In this document: positions 17,771 to 35,119 of the stretch, piece after piece
How the letters are laid out: each line of letters starts with the position of its first letter
Position numbering within the stretch: position 1 is the first letter of the stretch
From: Desulfurococcales archaeon
GTDB taxonomy: Archaea > Thermoproteota > Thermoprotei_A > Sulfolobales > WANQ01
Length of the DNA: 64,000 nucleotides
Assembly: GCA_027030065.1 (NCBI GenBank)
Contig: JALVFK010000086.1
Span: 18,479-82,478 of the forward strand
Direction: 5' to 3'
Position numbers and translations under genes: made by a program
The notes under the pieces: model-generated
Told to the model about the DNA's origin: nothing
Databases searched by the model: none
The model's input: the letters and a program-made list of their open reading frames with translations, nothing else

Positions 17771-18181
17771 ATGAGCCAGTTCAATATACCTGAAGACCTA
17801 GAATGCACTTATACATATATGGTTCGAGAAGAACATACGGCTAAACATATAGGATCGGGTACAGTAGAGGTTCTCTCAACACCCTCTATGATAGCCTTTA
17901 TGGAGCATGCTAGCTTAGAGTGCATACAAAGATACTTGCCCAAAGGTTATACTACAGTTGGGATAAGAGTAGACGTTAAACACTTGAAGCCCGCTCCAAA
18001 GGGAGCAAAAATAACTGTTAAGACAAGATTAGTAAAACGTGATGGTAAAAAACTAGTCTTTAAGGTACAAGCACTATGGGACGACATAGTGATAGGCGAG
18101 GGGATACATGAGAGATATATAGTTGATGAGAAAAAGTTTATTGAGAAATTAAACGAATTGACAAAATCTAAGGGAGCTTAA
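17771..18181 (+). CDS. hot-dog fold thioesterase (fluoroacetyl-CoA thioesterase-like)
   Basis: 136 aa. 'HTAKHIGSGTVEVLSTPSMIAFME' and 'TVGIRVDVKHLKPAPKGAKI' are typical of this small thioesterase family. Confidence 0.6.
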   Translation: MSQFNIPEDLECTYTYMVREEHTAKHIGSGTVEVLSTPSMIAFMEHASLECIQRYLPKGYTTVGIRVDVKHLKPAPKGAKITVKTRLVKRDGKKLVFKVQALWDDIVIGEGIHERYIVDEKKFIEKLNELTKSKGA

Positions 18182-18184
18182 GAA

Positions 18185-18559
18185 ATGTCGTCCGAAGAAT
18201 TATTTTTCTATGGATTAATAGCAGTAATCCTTGGATTAGGAATACCACTGGTAGTGCTAAGTATACTTAGACTATGGATGACTCATAAAGCATTAAAACT
18301 CTACGCAAAACACATAAAAGCTACAATGAATCTGCCCGAAGTAAAGAAGTTTATAGCCACGATAAAGAAGCCCTACATAGAAGTCGATGAAGACAAGAGT
18401 AAATCGCAAGTACTAGTCATCTGGAGAGATAGTAGGAGAAGAGATATTTATCCATCTGTATGGGTGTACGTTGATAAAAACACCATAAAACCGTTAAAAA
18501 TAATAGTGTATAGTGAGGACCCACATAAAAAACCGAGTACGAGAACGCTTCCAACATAA
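18185..18559 (+). CDS. hypothetical protein with N-terminal TM anchor
   Basis: 'LFFYGLIAVILGLGIPLVVLSILRLW' TM helix, then a basic soluble domain. Last gene of the pgk-gap string. Confidence 0.5.
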   Translation: MSSEELFFYGLIAVILGLGIPLVVLSILRLWMTHKALKLYAKHIKATMNLPEVKKFIATIKKPYIEVDEDKSKSQVLVIWRDSRRRDIYPSVWVYVDKNTIKPLKIIVYSEDPHKKPSTRTLPT

Positions 18560-18723
18560 ACAAGACTATATGAGTACTTGTATGTAATTCCTTCTAAAAC
18601 AACGCCATACTCCAAGAGTATTTCTACACAAGTCACATAATAACCTAAATGCGTTCTCAAGAATAAAGCTCCCAGATAGTATGAGTAGTGCACTATAACG
18701 TAATAGTAATATTATCTTCCTAG

Positions 18724-18782
18724 TTATCCTTGTCATCCTACTCAATACCCAATTGCCTGGGCGTGTAGGTAGACAAGGATAA
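18724..18782. repeat. 18-bp imperfect inverted repeat / long hairpin upstream of the Cas6-like gene
   Basis: TTATCCTTGTCATCCTAC (18724-18741) pairs with GTAGGTAGACAAGGATAA (18765-18782): 16 of 18 positions pair, with a 2x2 internal mismatch and a 23-nt loop. Confidence 0.7.
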
Positions 18783-18845
18783 TTTTGTAGAAACTAGCTT
18801 ATATTAGACGCTGAAAATACTCTTTAACTAGAGGATAGGGTTTTA

Positions 18846-19766
18846 ATGGTACTAATAGGAGGATTTGATAGAATACTATTATCGGCATCACCACGCAAGT
18901 ATACTTTAATTGAAGTATGTCTAAGAGTTGAGAAGAACGTAGTACTGCCACCCTTTACAGGCAAAGTACCCAAGAGTCTCTTAATAATAGGTAACTCTAA
19001 ACTATATGATATATTTGAAAAACCATTTATAGTGGAATATGATGGTGCTAAAATACAAGTTCCTAAACCCCTCCGAGTAACGCCACTATATATTCGTAAT
19101 AATGGGGATGTAAAGTACTTGTGGAAAAAGAAAAGTGGGGGGCCATCATTAAGGCTTAGGAAGGATACTACTGCTTGCTTTAAGATAGGATTTGAGGAGG
19201 GGTTGGAGAGAGACATATATTACGCTGTAGCAGGCATGGATAATGCTGTTCTCTTTGACGCGAAATGGATTATAGAAAGTGTTAGAGTTGAAAAATCATT
19301 TAAACTCCCATCACAGTATCCTGGAGTATCATTAGAGAATATTAGTGGTGTTAGGGTTTTCTTCCGGTCGCCCATAAAACTCGTAGACCCCTGGAAAAAG
19401 ACACGATACGGTAGGTTTCTACCAATAGCGGGAGTATTATTTGCATACAATATCGGTGAATTATTGAGACTGTTGAAGAGAGACATAGAGTACTGGTATG
19501 TTGTAAGCATGGTTTCAGCAGCTCTTCGCGAAACCCACAGGATATGGGAGACCGTTAAGAAAACAACCTATGTCTACGATGGGAAAGAACTCCCGGCATT
19601 ATCGGGTTACGCTACCTACCTAGTAGACGACGAGATAATAAACGGTATTAGGGGGTTTAGAGTATTCCTTGAAAACATTATTGCACACGCAATGGTAATG
19701 GGGATTGGAAGTAGTAGGGCAATAGGATTAGGTCACGTCGACATATACTTGTTGGAGAGAAACTAG
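18846..19766 (+). CDS. Cas6-like RAMP protein (orphan, no array nearby)
   Basis: C-terminal glycine-rich loop 'MGIGSSRAIGLGHV' (GxGx5GxG as in Cas6), N-terminal 'YTLIEVCLRVEKNVVLPPFTGKVPKSLL', and a mid-protein 'VFFRSPIKLV' strand. About 300 aa. Confidence 0.5.
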   Translation: MVLIGGFDRILLSASPRKYTLIEVCLRVEKNVVLPPFTGKVPKSLLIIGNSKLYDIFEKPFIVEYDGAKIQVPKPLRVTPLYIRNNGDVKYLWKKKSGGPSLRLRKDTTACFKIGFEEGLERDIYYAVAGMDNAVLFDAKWIIESVRVEKSFKLPSQYPGVSLENISGVRVFFRSPIKLVDPWKKTRYGRFLPIAGVLFAYNIGELLRLLKRDIEYWYVVSMVSAALRETHRIWETVKKTTYVYDGKELPALSGYATYLVDDEIINGIRGFRVFLENIIAHAMVMGIGSSRAIGLGHVDIYLLERN

Positions 19767-19805
19767 TATTCTGCTATTATTTCAAGTTCTACGTTAACCG
19801 CAACC

Positions 19806-19817
19806 TTTATTATTTTT
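19806..19817 (+). promoter_or_regulatory. TATA-box candidate for the low-complexity cassette
   Basis: TTTATTATTTTT is centred about 38 nt upstream of ATG 19849. A GGGTGA Shine-Dalgarno-like element lies 5-10 nt before the ATG. Confidence 0.35.
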
Positions 19818-19848
19818 GTGCAACTGCACAGAATTCTTGGGTGAAAAT

Positions 19849-20154
19849 ATGGCCTGGTGGTATGGACCCGGATACGGCTTCGGATGGGGATGGCGTGGAG
19901 GAAAAGGTGGATGGGGTAGAGGAGGCTGGCGTGGATGGGGATGGAGTAGTCCATGGCCTGGTAGAGGACCCTTCAGCTACCTACCACCGTGGCAGAGACC
20001 CGGCTGGTATCTAGGTAGAGGATTCTGCAGATGGTATTATGGATGGGGCTGGTGGCGCTGGCCAACTCCATGGTACTGGAACATACCAACATATCCAGTA
20101 TATCCGCCATACACTTCCTACACCTATCCGCCATACCCGTGGTGGAGGTGGTAG
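19849..20154 (+). CDS. Trp/Gly/Arg/Tyr/Pro-rich low-complexity protein (101 aa, about 21% Trp)
   Basis: ATG at 19849 preceded by GGGTGA. 'GFGWGWRGGKGGWGRGGWRGWGW' repeats and a PY-rich tail, with no Asp/Glu. The ORF track start at 19816 is probably too early. Confidence 0.6.
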   Translation: MAWWYGPGYGFGWGWRGGKGGWGRGGWRGWGWSSPWPGRGPFSYLPPWQRPGWYLGRGFCRWYYGWGWWRWPTPWYWNIPTYPVYPPYTSYTYPPYPWWRW

Positions 20155-20158
20155 GGAA

Positions 20159-20374
20159 ATGAGCTACCCATACCCCTACCCACTCTATCCTCCCGCGTAC
20201 CCCTATCCATACCCGTTGCCAGTAGATCCAGCATATATGATGTACTGGATGATCCAGTGGATAACATATCCATACTATTATGCGCTAACACTAGAAATGT
20301 ATAAGACAATGATAGAGGTTTGGAAGAAAACACTAGAAGCATTAACTAAAACACTAGAACAGAAAACAAGCTAA
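20159..20374 (+). CDS. Pro/Tyr-repeat protein with C-terminal amphipathic helix (71 aa)
   Basis: In-frame ATG 4 nt after the previous TAG, preceded by GGAGGTGG. 'YPYPYPLYPPAYPYPYPLP' then 'LEMYKTMIEVWKKTLEALTKTLEQ'. Confidence 0.5.
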   Translation: MSYPYPYPLYPPAYPYPYPLPVDPAYMMYWMIQWITYPYYYALTLEMYKTMIEVWKKTLEALTKTLEQKTS

Positions 20375-20386
20375 GAGAGGATAACC

Positions 20387-20749
20387 ATGTACTGGTGGTA
20401 TAGGTTTTGGAGAAGAATGATGTATTATCCACCACCGCCCCCACCAATCTATTATCCACCTTACCCCTATCAATACCCCTATCAGCAAACCCCCCAGCAA
20501 GCACAGCAACCACAAACTCAGCAGCAACAACAGCCAATACCTCTAACACCATATTATCCACCCATGCCGATGCCACCACTACCACCATATCCGCAGACAC
20601 CAGAAGAAGAACTAGCAATGCTTGAAGAATACAAGAAGGCATTAGAAGAAGATCTAAAGGATCTCCAAGAAGAGATTAAGAGCGTAGAGGAGAGAATCAA
20701 GGAATTAAAGAAAATCATTGAGGAAAGGAGAAGAAATACCCCATTCTAA
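20387..20749 (+). CDS. aromatic/Pro/Gln-rich protein with C-terminal coiled coil (DUF5320-like)
   Basis: 'MYWWYRFWRR', 'PPPPPP', 'QQTPQQAQQPQTQQQQQP', then the heptad coiled coil 'EEELAMLEEYKKALEEDLKDLQEEIKSVEERIKELKK'. Confidence 0.65.
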   Translation: MYWWYRFWRRMMYYPPPPPPIYYPPYPYQYPYQQTPQQAQQPQTQQQQQPIPLTPYYPPMPMPPLPPYPQTPEEELAMLEEYKKALEEDLKDLQEEIKSVEERIKELKKIIEERRRNTPF

Positions 20750-20772
20750 ATTTTTCTCCAATAATCTTTTTC

Positions 20773-21927
20773 TTAGTCTAGAGGAGAATAACCTGTTCTA
20801 AGTATTCTACGATACTCTAGATCCGTTTCCTTCATCTTGATGATCCTTGCCTTCACTACACCGTTCTCAAGAGTTGTAACTTGAGCTAATGCTACATGTA
20901 CTCCGAGCTTATCCATATATTCTATGAATTCGTCTAGTACTTTTATGTCTGGTACCCTTATAATGTATTCCTCGTATACAGCTCCTCCTTCTTCTATCAA
21001 CTTTATACTATCAATTGCTGGTTTTAGTATCGATAAACCGAGTCTCTTAGCTCTCTCTTCGAGTTCCTCTTCACTTAATCCTTCTTCATAGATCTTCCAT
21101 ATCTCACGTAGTATCCGTGAGAAAAGGAATCCTCTGCCTTCATCAAAGGGGTATTTCATTCCAAGCTCTAAGTCGTGAAAATGTGTATAGCTTGTAGTAT
21201 ACTTTAATGCTTTTACACGATGCTTGGGGTCCTTTAACACTATTCCCTCTCGCTCTTCTCTCTCAAGCTTACGGATAATCTCTTTCACAGAATCTAGATC
21301 GTTTTTATCTATGACTCCAAGTCTTCTAACACGCTTTAATCCAACATCATCTATTATCTCGTTTCTCTCTGTTACTGGTATGAAGAATCTACCACGCATT
21401 ATATCGAATACATAGTAGTCGAAGGTAGGAGCTTCCGGATAATAATGTTGTACATAGGGGTTTTCAGTCCCAATAACCTCACCGCATACAACAAGGTCTT
21501 CTCCATATTTTTTAAACAAGTTTCTCAAGAACTCCTCGTAAAGCATTCTTATCCTAGCAGTAGTGTATGGGCATATGTATCCTCCACGCGTAATAGCTAG
21601 TATTTGATCGGCGAACAATACTACTCTAACATTATATCCGTCAAGTTTTTCTTCAACTACTACGTCGTCTATGAAGTGTCTAGGTATTGCTTTAAGTAAT
21701 AGAATTCTCTGAATACTAGGATAACCATGTACTATCCTAACTTCTCCATCCTTAACAAGTATTGTTGTACCCTCCCTAAACTTCTTCCACTCACGTCTAA
21801 AGACTAGATAACCTATACCATGATACTCCATTGGTCTAAGCGTACGCCTCTCTATAAGGTCTTTTAGGACTCCTTCCTCTATGCCTAGCTTATTGGAAAC
21901 ACTCTTAAGTATATTATTAAGAGCCAA
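20773..21927 (-). CDS. ATP-dependent RNA ligase, Rnl3 (Pab1020) family
   Basis: Nucleotidyltransferase motif I 'VVEEKLDGYNVRV'. About 380 aa, with the N- and C-terminal domain layout of archaeal RNA ligases. Confidence 0.8.
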   Translation of the reverse strand: MALNNILKSVSNKLGIEEGVLKDLIERRTLRPMEYHGIGYLVFRREWKKFREGTTILVKDGEVRIVHGYPSIQRILLLKAIPRHFIDDVVVEEKLDGYNVRVVLFADQILAITRGGYICPYTTARIRMLYEEFLRNLFKKYGEDLVVCGEVIGTENPYVQHYYPEAPTFDYYVFDIMRGRFFIPVTERNEIIDDVGLKRVRRLGVIDKNDLDSVKEIIRKLEREEREGIVLKDPKHRVKALKYTTSYTHFHDLELGMKYPFDEGRGFLFSRILREIWKIYEEGLSEEELEERAKRLGLSILKPAIDSIKLIEEGGAVYEEYIIRVPDIKVLDEFIEYMDKLGVHVALAQVTTLENGVVKARIIKMKETDLEYRRILRTGYSPLD

Positions 21928-22020
21928 TTCTGCTTAAACCCTAGAGCCTTTACTTAACAAAGACTAATAATCCTAACTATACATTACCAGGAAAGATACC
22001 TCATAGACACACCTATAAAG

Positions 22021-22085
22021 TCAGCCGAGGGTACTCAACCACACCTAGAGTAAGGGGGTTCTTCGGCCCTAAAGCGTCTCATCAT
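22021..22085 (-). ncRNA. C/D box-like sRNA candidate (weak second half)
   Basis: Minus strand reads ATGATGA-gacgctttaggg(12)-CCGA ... gagtaccctcgg-CTGA, 65 nt in total, in a GC-rich island. No convincing C' box. Confidence 0.3.
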
Positions 22086-22186
22086 CCTTAGAGATTACTG
22101 GGTAAAACAGTTTATTTATACTTGTCTCAACGCTACAATATAGTAGGTATATAGTTAATAAATACTACCTAGTCAAGCAGAAGATA

Positions 22187-22879
22187 ATGAGGGTACCATG
22201 GTGGTGCTCTATGATGGTGTTCGTCATTGATACTAGCGGTATAACTGATCCAAGGCTTAGAGAAGCGCTAGGTGTATCTAGTCTAGAGGAAGTCGTCGAT
22301 AAACTAGCAGATCTAATGACTACTGCGAGGATAAAACTGGGTATGACCTTCTACATGCCTCCTTCAATGTTTGAGGAATTGAAGAGATTCCTATTGAGAA
22401 ACAATGTCAGAGTAGAAGTAGTAAACAAGCTCGCAGCAGTACTAGTCGTTAAAGCGCCGGATAAGATTCGAACCCAGATACCAGCAATTGTTATGTCAAA
22501 GTATGTTGAAGAAATAGCTAAGCGCTTATTTAAGGGTCTAAGAGTAGCTGAAGAAAGTGTTAGAAAGACTGCAAGAACATTTGCAAAAACTGGTTCCGAT
22601 AGGAGTAGAGGATTCGAGAAAAGCCGTGTAGACAAACTTGTAGGCGATATAATACACGATCTAAGAGAAAAGTATCGAGAAGCAACACGAAAGGGGGTAG
22701 TAGACACCGTTGTAGATTTTGATGCAGTAATGTTAGCCGTAGAGCTACGTGCAACTATGGTTACAAACGATGAAGGCATAAAGAGGCTTTGCGAAGACCT
22801 CGGTATAATAGTTGTAGACCCATTAACATTTCTCGAAATGCTTAAACGCTTCCAAGAATATGCGGAAAGATCAAGATAA
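22187..22879 (+). CDS. PIN-like protein, HARP / RNA-free RNase P (UPF0278) homolog
   Basis: 'MVFVIDTSGITDP' (true start probably ATG 22211/22214), 'GLRVAEE', 'LREKYREATRKG' and 'VTNDEGI'. These closely match motifs I recall from Aquifex Aq_880. Confidence 0.7.
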   Translation: MRVPWWCSMMVFVIDTSGITDPRLREALGVSSLEEVVDKLADLMTTARIKLGMTFYMPPSMFEELKRFLLRNNVRVEVVNKLAAVLVVKAPDKIRTQIPAIVMSKYVEEIAKRLFKGLRVAEESVRKTARTFAKTGSDRSRGFEKSRVDKLVGDIIHDLREKYREATRKGVVDTVVDFDAVMLAVELRATMVTNDEGIKRLCEDLGIIVVDPLTFLEMLKRFQEYAERSR

Positions 22880-23893
22880 GGTCTCCTTAATTACCTTTAA
22901 GACGTGTTCTAATAACTCGTTTACGCCATAGCCTTTCGCCGCACTTATAGTAAAAACCTTCCCTATGCCCTTACTTAGTAGATAGCCTTTTATCTTCTCG
23001 AACTTCTCTTCGTCAACATCATCTATTTTATTCAACGCTACTACTATGGGCTTGTCAAAGCGCTTGACTATGTCTTCGAAAACGCGTGCTTGTTCTTCAA
23101 TACTATAATAGCAATTCCTTGATACATCGAACAAGTATACTATAACTCCTTTCAAATGCTTTAAAGCCATTATTGCTTGTAGTTCTATAGGATTTCGATC
23201 CTCTAATGGTCTATCAAGTAGTCCAGGAGTATCAATAGCCTGTACCACTAGGTAATCGTTTATTCTTATATGTCCTAGTACAAGGCTTTTTGTTGTAAAG
23301 GGATAAGGTGCTATTTCGGGGGAAGCAGTTGAAATCTTCTTTACAAGTGTTGATTTACCTACCTGAGGCATACCAGCAACTATAATCGTCGGCTTCTCTG
23401 GATCTATACTCGGTATCTTTCTCAGTCTGGGAATATTATCTGCTAGAAAGTCAATGTACTTCCTATTCCTCTTGAGAACACTCATTATCCTTCCTATACC
23501 CTCACGCCTATATCTCTTAGCTTCACGTAGAGTTGGAGCAGTTTTTACGAGTTCTAGATAGCTCCTATATATTTTGTCAACTAGTTTAAGAGCTCTAGCT
23601 AACCGTGTTACAGCGTCCTTATAGTCCTTATATCCCACTAAGACATCAAGGAGGTCACGGTAGAAGGGATGTATGCGGTCGATGAAGGGTAGGCTGTAGA
23701 CTATTTTCTTTAACTCGTTTGAAACTATATTATACACGGTATTCAACTTATTGATTTCATAAGCTCTAGCCCTCCTAGCACCCCTTATCTTCCCCCTAGA
23801 GCCTTCAATTAGCTTCCTATATCTCCTAGTAATTTTTCCCACAATCTCATTATACCTTGGTATTCTCGGTAACTTCTCGTACGGTGATGCCAT
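22871..23893 (-). CDS. NOG1-type GTP-binding protein
   Basis: NOG1 N-terminal helical domain with G1 'GMPQVGKST', G3 'DTPGLLD' and G4 'NKID'. Confidence 0.9.
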   Translation of the reverse strand: MASPYEKLPRIPRYNEIVGKITRRYRKLIEGSRGKIRGARRARAYEINKLNTVYNIVSNELKKIVYSLPFIDRIHPFYRDLLDVLVGYKDYKDAVTRLARALKLVDKIYRSYLELVKTAPTLREAKRYRREGIGRIMSVLKRNRKYIDFLADNIPRLRKIPSIDPEKPTIIVAGMPQVGKSTLVKKISTASPEIAPYPFTTKSLVLGHIRINDYLVVQAIDTPGLLDRPLEDRNPIELQAIMALKHLKGVIVYLFDVSRNCYYSIEEQARVFEDIVKRFDKPIVVALNKIDDVDEEKFEKIKGYLLSKGIGKVFTISAAKGYGVNELLEHVLKVIKETLS

Positions 23894-24018
23894 ATTATGG
23901 TACCTCGAATCCCCATATTACTGTTATTTATAAGGTAATAAGGCTGAGGGAAGTGTATATATGTTCTACGGTTACCCGAGTATTCTCTCAAATAGAAGCG
24001 ATGTGACCGGCTAGTATA

Positions 24019-25788
24019 ATGTATAAATACTACTTCAACTGTATATTTAGAGGTGGTGATTCTGACATGGCGGGAAACACTACTAAGTACGCTATAATAG
24101 GCATAATAATCATCATAATAATAGCTATAGGAGCATACTATGCAACTCAGAAGCCAGCCCAAACAACTACTACGCCGACGACAACATCTTCACCGAGTCC
24201 AACAACTACTTCATCGCCAAGCCCAACAACCACGACAGCTCCTCCAAAAACAGTAGAGTTGACGGGAGACTTTAACAAAGACATTATCGCTGTAGGTAAG
24301 GCACTAGAAGCCAACGGTATAAGCGAGGTAAAATTCACTGTATGGGCTGCTGGAGACCCCAACAGCGTTATGAGAATATACGGTATCTATGAGGCAGCAC
24401 ACAGAATAAACAAGATATGGGCTGACAATGGTATTAACGTGAAAATAACAGTAAACAAGTACTGGATCTCAGACTTCAACCAACTATACCAGGAATACCT
24501 AAGCAAGCAACCACTAGGTCAAGCGGGAGACTTCTTTGTAGACAGCTACGTATTCATTGGTAGCCTAGCGAAGGAGGGCTATATACTAGACATAACACCA
24601 TGGGTTAACAAGTACTGGGATAGTGTTTTCAGCGACTTCTATAAGCCGCTATGGCAGGGAATGAAGGTAGGCGACAAATACTATGGTATACCACAGGATA
24701 CTGAAGCAAGACCACTATACATACGCAAAGACGTTGCAAAGTGTATAGGATGGGATCTATCAAATGTAGCAGACCTGGTAAAAGAAGGTAAATTCACGTG
24801 GAAAGACGTATATGAGAAAGCAAAGGAAGCAGTAAGTAAAGGCTGCAGTGAATGGGGACTAATACATCGTAAGGGATCAGCGCACCCAGACCTAATACAA
24901 TTCATCTACGCTTTCGGCGGTAAACTCTACGACCCTGAGAAAGACAAGCTAGTACTAGATGTACCAGCAGTATACAAGTGGCTATACGTTGAATGGAAGT
25001 TCGCACAAGACGGACTACTACCAAAAGACATAATGTCATGGGACTGGGCTAAACAAATACACCCAACAATAGTTGAAGGAAAGACACTATTTGATATAGG
25101 TGGAACATGGTACTGGACCGAGTGGCAAACCAAGGACTACTACACAGACCCCAATACGGGTGAGAAGAGAGGACTAAAACCAGAGGAAGTAAAAGAATGG
25201 TTCTACTACACATTATTCCCAGCTGGAGAAGAGGGACTAAAACCAGTAACCCTAAGCCAGCCCTTCGCATGGATGATAAACTCCAGAGCTGGTGAACAGA
25301 ACCCTAAGTACGATGAACTCAAAGACTTATACCACAAGCTAGCGTTCCTCATAGTCGTTAAGGCAAGCGATCCAGACATAAACGCCATACACAGCGTCAT
25401 AAGCGCTCATGTACCAGTGAGGAAAAAGGCAACCGAGCTACTATATGATAAGGACTGGATCAACAAGCTAGTAAACCTTCAACTAGACCTAGCACCAGAA
25501 GTAAAAGATAACATAAAGGACATAGTGGCTACAACTGTTAATGAGATAAACGTAGAGTTCCTAGCGAACGTAAGCTATATGTTAGACTACACCCATATGG
25601 CGCCAAACCATCCAAAGTACCCAGCACTAGCAGACATATTCGCTGAAACAGTTGATCAAGTACTAAGAGGGCAAATGACACCCGAGGAAGCAGTACAGCA
25701 CATAATAAGTAGAATACAAGCAGACCCTGAGCTATCACAAGCAGTAGAAATAGTAGGAGAAATACCCGGTGGTTGGCAATTTCCCTAA
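24019..25788 (+). CDS. sugar ABC transporter substrate-binding protein (family 1), N-terminally anchored
   Basis: Likely start at ATG 24067. TM helix 'YAIIGIIIIIIIAIGAYYA', then a Thr/Ser/Pro linker with the tandem 'TTTSSPSP', then a family-1-like body. Confidence 0.85.
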   Translation: MYKYYFNCIFRGGDSDMAGNTTKYAIIGIIIIIIIAIGAYYATQKPAQTTTTPTTTSSPSPTTTSSPSPTTTTAPPKTVELTGDFNKDIIAVGKALEANGISEVKFTVWAAGDPNSVMRIYGIYEAAHRINKIWADNGINVKITVNKYWISDFNQLYQEYLSKQPLGQAGDFFVDSYVFIGSLAKEGYILDITPWVNKYWDSVFSDFYKPLWQGMKVGDKYYGIPQDTEARPLYIRKDVAKCIGWDLSNVADLVKEGKFTWKDVYEKAKEAVSKGCSEWGLIHRKGSAHPDLIQFIYAFGGKLYDPEKDKLVLDVPAVYKWLYVEWKFAQDGLLPKDIMSWDWAKQIHPTIVEGKTLFDIGGTWYWTEWQTKDYYTDPNTGEKRGLKPEEVKEWFYYTLFPAGEEGLKPVTLSQPFAWMINSRAGEQNPKYDELKDLYHKLAFLIVVKASDPDINAIHSVISAHVPVRKKATELLYDKDWINKLVNLQLDLAPEVKDNIKDIVATTVNEINVEFLANVSYMLDYTHMAPNHPKYPALADIFAETVDQVLRGQMTPEEAVQHIISRIQADPELSQAVEIVGEIPGGWQFP

Positions 25789-35057: not shown

Positions 35058-35119
35058 GGGGATGATGTCACCGCCAGTGTCGGAACAAAAGTTATGATGT
35101 CGCTTCGCGCTCTGACTCC
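35058..35119 (+). ncRNA. C/D box sRNA
   Basis: GGGG-ATGATGT-caccgccagtgt(12)-CGGA-acaaaagtt-ATGATGT-cgcttcgcgct(11)-CTGA-CTCC. The core is 54 nt. The 3' half is antisense to the last codons of the 35092..35517 gene. Confidence 0.5.

Follow-up and report, generated by a model that had tools for sequence, protein, structure and literature searches.

A cas6, DUF5320, Rnl3-HARP and NOG1 gene neighbourhood of one archaeal clade is probably a mosaic of independent units and holds a predicted C/D box small RNA gene

We found that a 5-kb stretch (positions 18,724 to 23,893) of a 64-kb piece of archaeal DNA, hereafter the window, is probably a mosaic, in which four independent units have nothing in common but a gene order inherited within one family-level Desulfurococcales clade. 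The first unit would be a stand-alone cas6, whose product most likely cuts the precursor of CRISPR (clustered regularly interspaced short palindromic repeats) RNA (pre-crRNA) from arrays elsewhere in the genome, and the second would be a three-gene operon for a split DUF5320 set, made up of the GW core protein, YP and the PQ/coiled-coil protein PQcc. The third would be the known pair of the RNA ligase Rnl3 and its partner HARP, arranged divergently, with a C/D box small RNA (sRNA) in the spacer on the ligase strand, and the fourth would be the GTPase NOG1, a neighbour in this clade only, by descent. All six elements that a first-pass annotation had named here were found at or near the places where it had put them, and they are laid out as follows (nt, nucleotides; aa, amino acids).

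18846-19766, plus strand: cas6 gene, 306 aa (Pfam, AlphaFold2, Foldseek)
19849-20154, plus strand: GW protein gene, 101 aa, DUF5320 N-terminal core and aromatic tail
20159-20374, plus strand: YP protein gene, 71 aa, middle gene of the trio
20387-20749, plus strand: PQcc protein gene, 120 aa, C-terminal half of DUF5320
20773-21927, minus strand: Rnl3 ligase gene, 384 aa, probable TTG start (TIGR01209)
21928-22210: Rnl3-HARP spacer, ~260-285 nt, the length being set by the HARP start chosen
22090-22016, minus strand: C/D box sRNA, ~75 nt, predicted from boxes, guides and terminal stem
22096-22186, both directions: putative compact bidirectional promoter region (conserved block in the spacer alignment)
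22211-22879, plus strand: HARP gene (PIN_5, TIGR03875, NF003345)
22871-23893, minus strand: NOG1 gene, 340 aa (NOG1_N, NOG1, MMR_HSR1)

All window proteins were compared by tblastn with 50 archaeal and bacterial loci centred on Rnl3, each taken with a flank of at most 10 kb. In 37 of the 50 loci, HARP directly adjoins Rnl3, and it is the sole window component retained in this way; 2 of the 13 loci without HARP are truncated contigs. The two genes are divergent in 11 of the 37 loci (10 archaeal and 1 from Planctomycetota), and in the other 26, all bacterial, they are co-directional, with HARP before Rnl3 and mostly overlapping it. Cas6, GW/YP/PQcc and NOG1 were seen near Rnl3 only where the ligase is at least 69% identical to that of the window (loci L002-L005, L055/L056 and L070), and NOG1 adjoins HARP only in this close clade. 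In L007 and L010, which are the next Desulfurococcales lineages and have an Rnl3 46-49% identical, HARP alone is kept, with a spacer of 23-27 nt. Within the clade, the conserved run reads PGK, GAPDH, Usp, thioesterase, Cas6 ... Rnl3, HARP, NOG1, with cas6 orthologues at 57-82% identity. Since this synteny includes glycolytic genes, it points to inherited gene order and not to an RNA-specific arrangement. The trio lies directly after the thioesterase gene in L070, in which cas6 is absent from the position, and in L052 cas6 is present and the slot of the trio is filled by three unrelated open reading frames (ORFs) of 341, 449 and 411 aa, which indicates that the slot between cas6 and Rnl3 is variable. 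An N-terminal motif, FTG...G.I......G..AL..L, is apparently common to the three replacement ORFs (L052 4269-8086), which have no Pfam match and may be paralogues.

The Cas6-like identity proposed for the first gene was borne out by its fold, its glycine-rich loop and its family. For the window protein itself, the Pfam models Cas6_N and CRISPR_Cas6 stay below cut-off (21.2 and 21.0 bits against thresholds of 27 and 25, E ~4e-4), and TIGR01877 does not reach its cut-off (17.4 against 58.65 bits). The family is small (16 clusters in the homologue search), and all 13 of 13 members match CRISPR_Cas6 (PF10040) at E <= 0.01, the best at 6e-7. An AlphaFold2 model of the window protein (predicted local distance difference test, pLDDT, 85.6; predicted template modelling score, pTM, 0.87) matched the Sulfolobus solfataricus Cas6 structures 4ILM/4ILL/3ZFV in Foldseek with E = 2e-14 and template modelling (TM) scores of 0.66-0.73, and the top ~35 PDB matches are all Cas6 proteins or CRISPR complexes containing Cas6. 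The S. solfataricus protein (4ILL/4ILM, 3ZFV) has the same two-domain fold and glycine-rich loop, with only 16-18% sequence identity. In the window, the C-terminal glycine-rich loop is MGIGSSRAIGLGH, of which G286, G288, R291, G294 and G296 are invariant in the family; the invariant residues, the loop included, are common to stand-alone and CRISPR-linked members.

Homologues of the window Cas6 at 39-44% identity adjoin CRISPR arrays in which CTTTCAATTCTTTATTGTTATTAC or a variant of it is repeated 19, 11 and 16 times, and one of these homologue loci (L058) also carries cas3, csa3, csa1, cas1 and cas2. The Crenarchaeal repeats beside family members are 24 nt long and, on the opposite strand, read GTAATAACAATAAAGAATTGAAAG. 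Unlike Cas6 in the Sulfolobus comparison, the window gene is detached from any cas operon or array. In at least four species-level relatives (57-98% identity), it has stayed in conserved housekeeping surroundings that hold no CRISPR, and no CRISPR-repeat-like sites were found in the 64-kb window. The neighbourhood had been taken to begin at 18724, which falls in the spacer upstream of cas6 (18560-18845); this spacer holds only a conserved promoter-like block near the start codon, with no sign of an sRNA. Taken together, the fold model and the family alignment indicate that the gene is a genuine crenarchaeal-type cas6 endoribonuclease gene lying away from its array, and the repeats that its product most likely cuts would end in ATTGAAAG or similar.

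The three small genes after cas6 form a tight co-directional set with intergenic gaps of 4 nt and 12 nt, and the earlier suggestion of a separate orientation or promoter for each gene of the neighbourhood fails for them. They are in frame in L002-L005, L055 and L070, relatives whose Rnl3 is 69-99% identical. Their description as low-complexity RGG/GW proteins was right in composition (GW consists of W 21%, G 21%, P 16%, Y 13% and R 9%); what did not stand was the pointer to RNA, and a Pfam profile search detected no RNA-binding domain in the trio. GW has 152 homologues, in Thermoproteota, Bathyarchaeia, Thermoplasmatales, Thermococcus and others, many of which carry DUF5320 (PF17253). A near-invariant DUF5320 core, GPWPGRGPFSYLPPWQRPGW-FGRGACWW, recurs across very distant archaeal phyla (P0017-P0136), the remainder of the protein being low-complexity, and the N-terminal core of the window GW reads SPWPGRGPFSYLPPWQRPGW..GRGFC. 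In fused DUF5320 members, the core is followed by a coiled coil. Because GW aligns to residues 4-68 and PQcc to residues 63-96 of one such fused protein (P0038), the window appears to encode a split DUF5320. Pfam gave no match for GW and YP at E <= 10, and PQcc reached 18.5 bits against the DUF5320 threshold of 27, at positions 63-98 (the coiled-coil part) only; P0038, P0020 and P0106 exceed the threshold.

YP has a Tyr/Pro-rich N-terminus and a C-terminal helix, and its orthologues stand in the same place after GW homologues in L086 (E = 8e-15), L088 (5e-13) and L083 (1e-4). PQcc combines an aromatic, Pro- and Gln-rich N-terminus with a coiled coil; its homologue search gave 2 matches only, owing to low complexity, and it aligns to the third gene in L086, L088 and L081. 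The order GW, YP-like, PQcc-like lies directly after DUF134 in two other Thermoproteota lineages (L086 and L088), and a third lineage has the PQcc-like gene upstream of GW on the opposite strand and the YP-like gene after GW. These arrangements suggest that Thermoproteota DUF5320 proteins form a conserved split three-gene set tied to DUF134. In five independent other archaeal DUF5320 contexts, DUF134 is adjacent in 5/5, a NifX-like gene in 3/5, CbiA/ParA-ferredoxin (CbiA/Fer4) ATPases in 2/5 and MJ0401 in 2/5, while Rnl3, HARP and Cas6 are adjacent in 0/5, as are RNA enzymes in general. None of the DUF134, NifX-like, CbiA/Fer4 and MJ0401 genes occurs in the 64-kb window.

Compared with DUF5320 proteins in DUF134/NifX-like/MinD-ferredoxin clusters, the window trio has the same core PWPGRGPFSYLPPWQRPGW and the same coiled-coil motif, EEELxMLExYKKALEEDL. 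It differs from the fused proteins in that its GW and coiled-coil parts are encoded by two genes, on either side of a YP gene, and from the usual clusters in being separated, in this clade, from DUF134 and the other partners. The literature on DUF5320 that we found holds passing mentions only, with no functional study. The function of the trio is probably not in RNA, and the usual neighbours of the family would point to regulation or metal-cofactor handling. Some of these neighbours, namely DUF134 helix-turn-helix, NifX-like and MJ0401 zinc ribbon proteins, have short RG-/W-rich tails (e.g. MHGPPWAWRWGRRGRGRPP, MGYRYGWGRGRGRGMGW, RGYGRGWRYGQRRGKGFGG) that resemble the N-terminus of GW (L081 5255-5596 and 8209-8634; L086 5484-5810 and 6869-7108; L084 6351-6545), and such shared tails could be a targeting or co-assembly tag.

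The names given earlier to the ligase, HARP and NOG1 were confirmed by profile matches. Rnl3, an ATP-dependent RNA ligase, matches TIGR01209 over its full length (390.1 bits against a cut-off of 136.9), together with RNA_ligase (E = 8.6e-28) and Lig_C, the Pab1020 C-terminal dimerisation domain (E = 2.9e-24), and its motif I is KLDG within EEKLDGYN. HARP, a homologue of the protein-only RNase P, matches PIN_5 over its full length (PF08745; 230.7 bits, E = 1.5e-68), TIGR03875 'RNA ligase partner' (223.9 bits against 95.3) and NF003345 (275 bits against 260). The HARP ATG at 22187 is not conserved in L002, the closest public contig (a Desulfurococcales metagenome-assembled genome, MAG, with Rnl3 99% identical). 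The conserved start is ATGATG at 22211-22216; a protein begun there has 221-222 aa, in keeping with the called orthologues, and HARP most likely starts at the ATG at 22211. NOG1, of a family of ribosome-biogenesis GTPases, is convergent with HARP with a 9-nt overlap; it is over threshold for NOG1_N (128.2 bits, E = 4e-37), NOG1 (80.9, E = 6e-23) and the GTPase domain MMR_HSR1 (61.3, E = 1e-16), and its translation has the motifs GMPQVGKST, DTPG and NKID.

The linkage of HARP and Rnl3 is already known (TIGR03875 'RNA ligase partner' in NCBIfam; Seshadri & Gopalan, mBio 2025, PMC12153264). In that study, 89% of HARP-positive genomes carry Rnl3, the two genes lie together in 80% of the bacterial cases and a third of the archaeal ones, and it was proposed that C/D sRNA precursors are trimmed at the 5' end by HARP so that Rnl3 can close them into circles; Desulfurococcales is not among the HARP-bearing orders given. 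HARP cleaves pre-tRNA (transfer RNA precursor) 5' leaders in other species, and some recombinant HARPs are without that activity (PMC12153264). The Rnl3 enzymes of P. abyssi and T. kodakarensis circularise single-stranded RNA, C/D sRNAs included, in an ATP-dependent manner (PMC12153264; PMC9014305), and a T. kodakarensis knockout showed that C/D sRNAs depend on Rnl3 for their circularisation, for which a terminal stem is also necessary (PMC9014305). The Pab1020 and TK1545 ligases (PMC9014305) share the RNA_ligase plus Lig_C architecture and the KxDG motif with the window ligase. In the literature on these ligases, we found no mention of a ligase gene directly adjoining a C/D sRNA gene.

The pair in the window resembles that of other archaea in its two families and in its immediate, divergent adjacency. 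It differs in its spacer, which is 219-260 nt long against 23-102 nt in most other divergent pairs sampled, and in the C/D box sRNA gene that this spacer holds. A long spacer (~293 nt) otherwise occurs in one divergent pair only, that of L019 (Halosimplex), in which a motif scan of the spacer found no C/D candidate. In 26/27 bacterial loci with both genes (L024-L051), Rnl3 directly follows HARP on the same strand, with an overlap usually of 4-73 nt. The pair was described as typically bidirectional and rarely co-linear (PMC12153264), whereas our bacterial sample is mostly co-directional, and the discrepancy is probably due to genome sampling (MAGs here).

The C/D-like sRNA candidate between the two genes was likewise upheld, by its canonical boxes, conserved guides and terminal stem. 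It lies on the Rnl3 strand, 93 nt upstream of the ligase gene, and consists of the following parts, all on the minus strand (bp, base pairs).

22090-22086 / 22020-22016: terminal stem UAAGG / CUUUA, 5 bp
22085-22079: C box ATGATGA
between the C and D' boxes: D' guide GACGCUUUAGGG, 12 nt
22066-22063: D' box CCGA
22062-22041: clade-specific insert, 22 nt
22040-22035: C' box GGTTGA
between the C' and D boxes: D guide GUACCCUCGG, 10 nt
22024-22021: D box CTGA

An alignment of the spacers of six clade members shows two invariant minus-strand blocks flanked by box motifs, with diverging flanks. A compact canonical form is found in L004, L052 and L070 (GUGAUGA, the 12-nt guide AACGCUUUAGGA, AUGA, 3-8 nt, GUGAUUA, the 12-nt guide AAGUACCCUCGG, CUGA); that of L004 reads GTGATGA-12-ATGA-3-GTGATTA-12-CTGA. 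A metagenome scan for the complements of the two guides returned the syntenic L070 and five homologues from other lineages, with the same guides and degenerate boxes. The terminal stems of such homologues are GGGCGG/CCGCCC in L068, GGCGG/CCGCC in L069 and CCCCCGG/CCGGGGG in L077, against UAAGG/CUUUA in the window, and the changes are compensatory. The same guides with compensatory GC-rich stems in five lineages thus argue for selection on an RNA, and the two guides appear invariant across several Thermoprotei lineages. Neither Rnl3 nor HARP adjoins the five homologues on the available contigs. The window sRNA has the C, D', C' and D boxes, 10-12-nt guides and short terminal stem of archaeal dual-guide C/D box sRNAs, and its guides, like theirs, are conserved while the flanks drift. 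It differs from known ones in the 22-nt insert between D' and C' and in the degenerate internal boxes CCGA and GGUUGA of the window lineage. Judging by these features, it is very probably a genuine C/D box methylation-guide sRNA gene, and it is the new item of the locus.

As a control, a strict box motif scan of 449 kb of bacterial DNA gave 0 matches. Rfam searched on 18000-24500 at E <= 10 left the sRNA unmatched; short, guide-specific sRNAs are expected to lack an Rfam family. A match to snoZ175 (E = 8.3) lies inside the PQcc gene and was dismissed as chance. Folding was not better than that of shuffled sequences (z = +0.9 to +1.4, except L077), as expected for guide RNAs, and is uninformative. 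A 16S target is supported for the D' guide only: the core of its target, CCUAAAGCGU, agrees with the consensus of archaeal 16S on which primer A571F, GCYTAAAGSRNCCGTAGC, is built (PMC6618113). None of the loci examined contains ribosomal RNA (rRNA). The target of the D guide, CCGAGGGUAC, was not located in viral-contig scans or literature sequence searches. The idea that both guides flank 23S helix 92 was not supported: a metagenome scan with CCGAGGGTACN{5,35}CCTAAAGCG gave sRNA homologues and chance matches and no rRNA. Elsewhere in the window, the motif scan picked up two further C/D box sRNA candidates at 35062-35115 (plus) and 50093-50044 (minus); in the latter, the C and D boxes are perfect, the spacers are of 12 nt and the terminal stem has 4 bp.

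The spacer also holds likely promoter elements. A TATA-like TATAAATAAA (minus, 22120-22111) precedes the C box by 25 nt. HARP is preceded by an AT-rich block (~22150-22167, plus), and Rnl3 has an apparent TATA-like element of its own ~27 nt before its TTG start. A spacer block of ~50 nt (22096-22145) is conserved between relatives while the surrounding spacer has diverged, and it contains TATA-like elements for the sRNA and HARP in opposite orientations. We infer a promoter function for these elements from their sequence and position.

A canonical C/D sRNA unrelated in its guides to that of the window was found beside Rnl3 in two Methanothermococcus genomes. It lies on the same strand as Rnl3, ~115 nt downstream in L008 (11222-11275, plus) and ~85 nt downstream in L009 (11261-11314, plus), and reads CATCC-GGTGATGA-12-CTGA-9-AGATGA-12-CTGA-GGATG; it has a 5-bp terminal stem and is followed by a run of Ts, seven in L008 and eight in L009. 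The strict scan had three other matches in ~525 kb of archaeal sequence.

If the enzymology of homologues applies here, HARP, a PIN-type metallonuclease, would remove the 5' leader of a precursor, and Rnl3 would adenylate the 5'-phosphate and join it to the 3'-OH of the same RNA; by the Thermococcales precedent, such circularisation would act on C/D box sRNAs whose ends are held by a terminal stem. The terminal stem of the local sRNA, together with its short predicted leader, makes this RNA a plausible substrate. That HARP or Rnl3 acts on this particular sRNA is put forward as a hypothesis only, by analogy with these homologues.

Several readings compete with the mosaic of four units. In the first-pass annotation, Cas6, the RGG/GW proteins, Rnl3, the sRNA, HARP and NOG1 were joined into one cut-and-ligate module for RNA maturation or repair, with the disordered proteins as scaffolds, and synteny across related genomes was proposed as its test. 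The six elements do lie inside 5 kb, the same arrangement recurs in L002, L005, L055 and L056, and the GW protein is rich in RG and W. Against this, the arrangement is limited to the genomes with Rnl3 at least 69% identical, which also share the flanking glycolytic genes, and cas6 and the trio were independently lost or replaced within the clade (L070 is without cas6 and L052 without the trio). Cas6 usually stands with CRISPR-Cas genes and DUF5320 with DUF134, NifX-like and MinD/Fer4 genes, contexts that have no relation to Rnl3, and the trio gave no RNA-binding domain. The six-part module thus appears largely refuted by its own synteny test, and we regard it as extremely unlikely. Recruitment of the stand-alone Cas6 to process non-CRISPR RNAs, e.g. 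sRNA or rRNA precursors, would fit the retention of the gene in a conserved, CRISPR-free housekeeping context, but every invariant residue is shared with CRISPR-adjacent members, the 64-kb window lacks repeat-like sites and L070 has no cas6 at this position. Stand-alone cas6 genes that serve distant arrays are also common in archaea, and recruitment is very unlikely. The mosaic has points against it as well: the trio and cas6 stay near Rnl3 in several genomes, so that a lineage-specific functional link may exist, CRISPR arrays for cas6 to serve were not found in the 64-kb window, and the Methanothermococcus sRNA suggests that adjacency to Rnl3 may not be an accident of gene order.

The link drawn earlier between Rnl3, the C/D sRNA and HARP is a reasonable one and agrees with the published hypothesis (PMC12153264). 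In its strong form, the three would be a functional triad, in which the sRNA is the dedicated or preferred substrate, HARP trims its leader, Rnl3 circularises it and a shared promoter couples their production. The sRNA stands exactly between both genes, with its own TATA-like element inside the conserved bidirectional promoter block, its 5-bp terminal stem is of the kind that Rnl3 requires (PMC9014305), and an enzyme-substrate relation is what the published hypothesis predicts. Two independent cases of a C/D sRNA beside Rnl3 were seen where 0.07 were expected (Poisson P ~0.002, post hoc, for ~20 non-redundant archaeal loci of 600 nt each); with the relaxed density of the window (3 per 64 kb, or 1 per 21 kb) and nine independent lineages, P is ~0.03, also post hoc. 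However, these estimates come from two independent lineages only, same-guide sRNAs occur in five other lineages away from Rnl3 and HARP on the available contigs, no C/D candidate turned up within 1.5 kb of Rnl3 when 16 further archaeal loci were scanned with relaxed motifs, and the Methanothermococcus loci have no HARP within 10 kb. To our knowledge, bacteria lack a C/D methylation system; because they keep the HARP-Rnl3 pair, C/D sRNAs cannot be its universal substrate. C/D sRNA genes are also dense and positionally plastic in hyperthermophile genomes (PMC7994747). We therefore consider the triad unlikely, and it is equally doubtful that C/D sRNA genes are placed non-randomly beside Rnl3 and that the sRNA, HARP and Rnl3 form an enzyme-substrate locus, with HARP setting the 5' end and Rnl3 circularising. 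HARP and Rnl3 could instead be a toxin-antitoxin-like pair, with a PIN nuclease toxin and a ligase that repairs or neutralises the damage, the sRNA being irrelevant. HARP falls in the VapC-like PIN_5 group, its adjacency to the ligase gene is widespread and the idea is discussed in PMC12153264, but that study reports no growth defect in the T. kodakarensis Rnl3 knockout and no phenotype in HARP knockouts of two euryarchaea, an enzyme of 384 aa is atypical as an antitoxin, and the window content bears nothing on the idea. Such a pair is highly improbable here.

Under the mosaic reading, cas6, the DUF5320 proteins and NOG1 are kept from annotation as parts of an RNA repair module. If the sRNA is acted on by its neighbours, the locus would give the non-tRNA function that has been proposed for archaeal HARP its first anchor in a genome; the role of HARP in archaea that already have an RNA-based RNase P has been in question since 2017. 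With HARP, a stem-bearing C/D sRNA and Rnl3 within 1.2 kb, it offers a defined three-component system and a compact natural test bed for the published hypothesis, and it could be rebuilt in vitro from two recombinant proteins and one short transcript.

For the 64-kb window as a whole, a tRNA scan found none, and Rfam at the gathering threshold gave nothing relevant. The source organism appears to be thermophilic, since the related contigs are hydrothermal MAGs.

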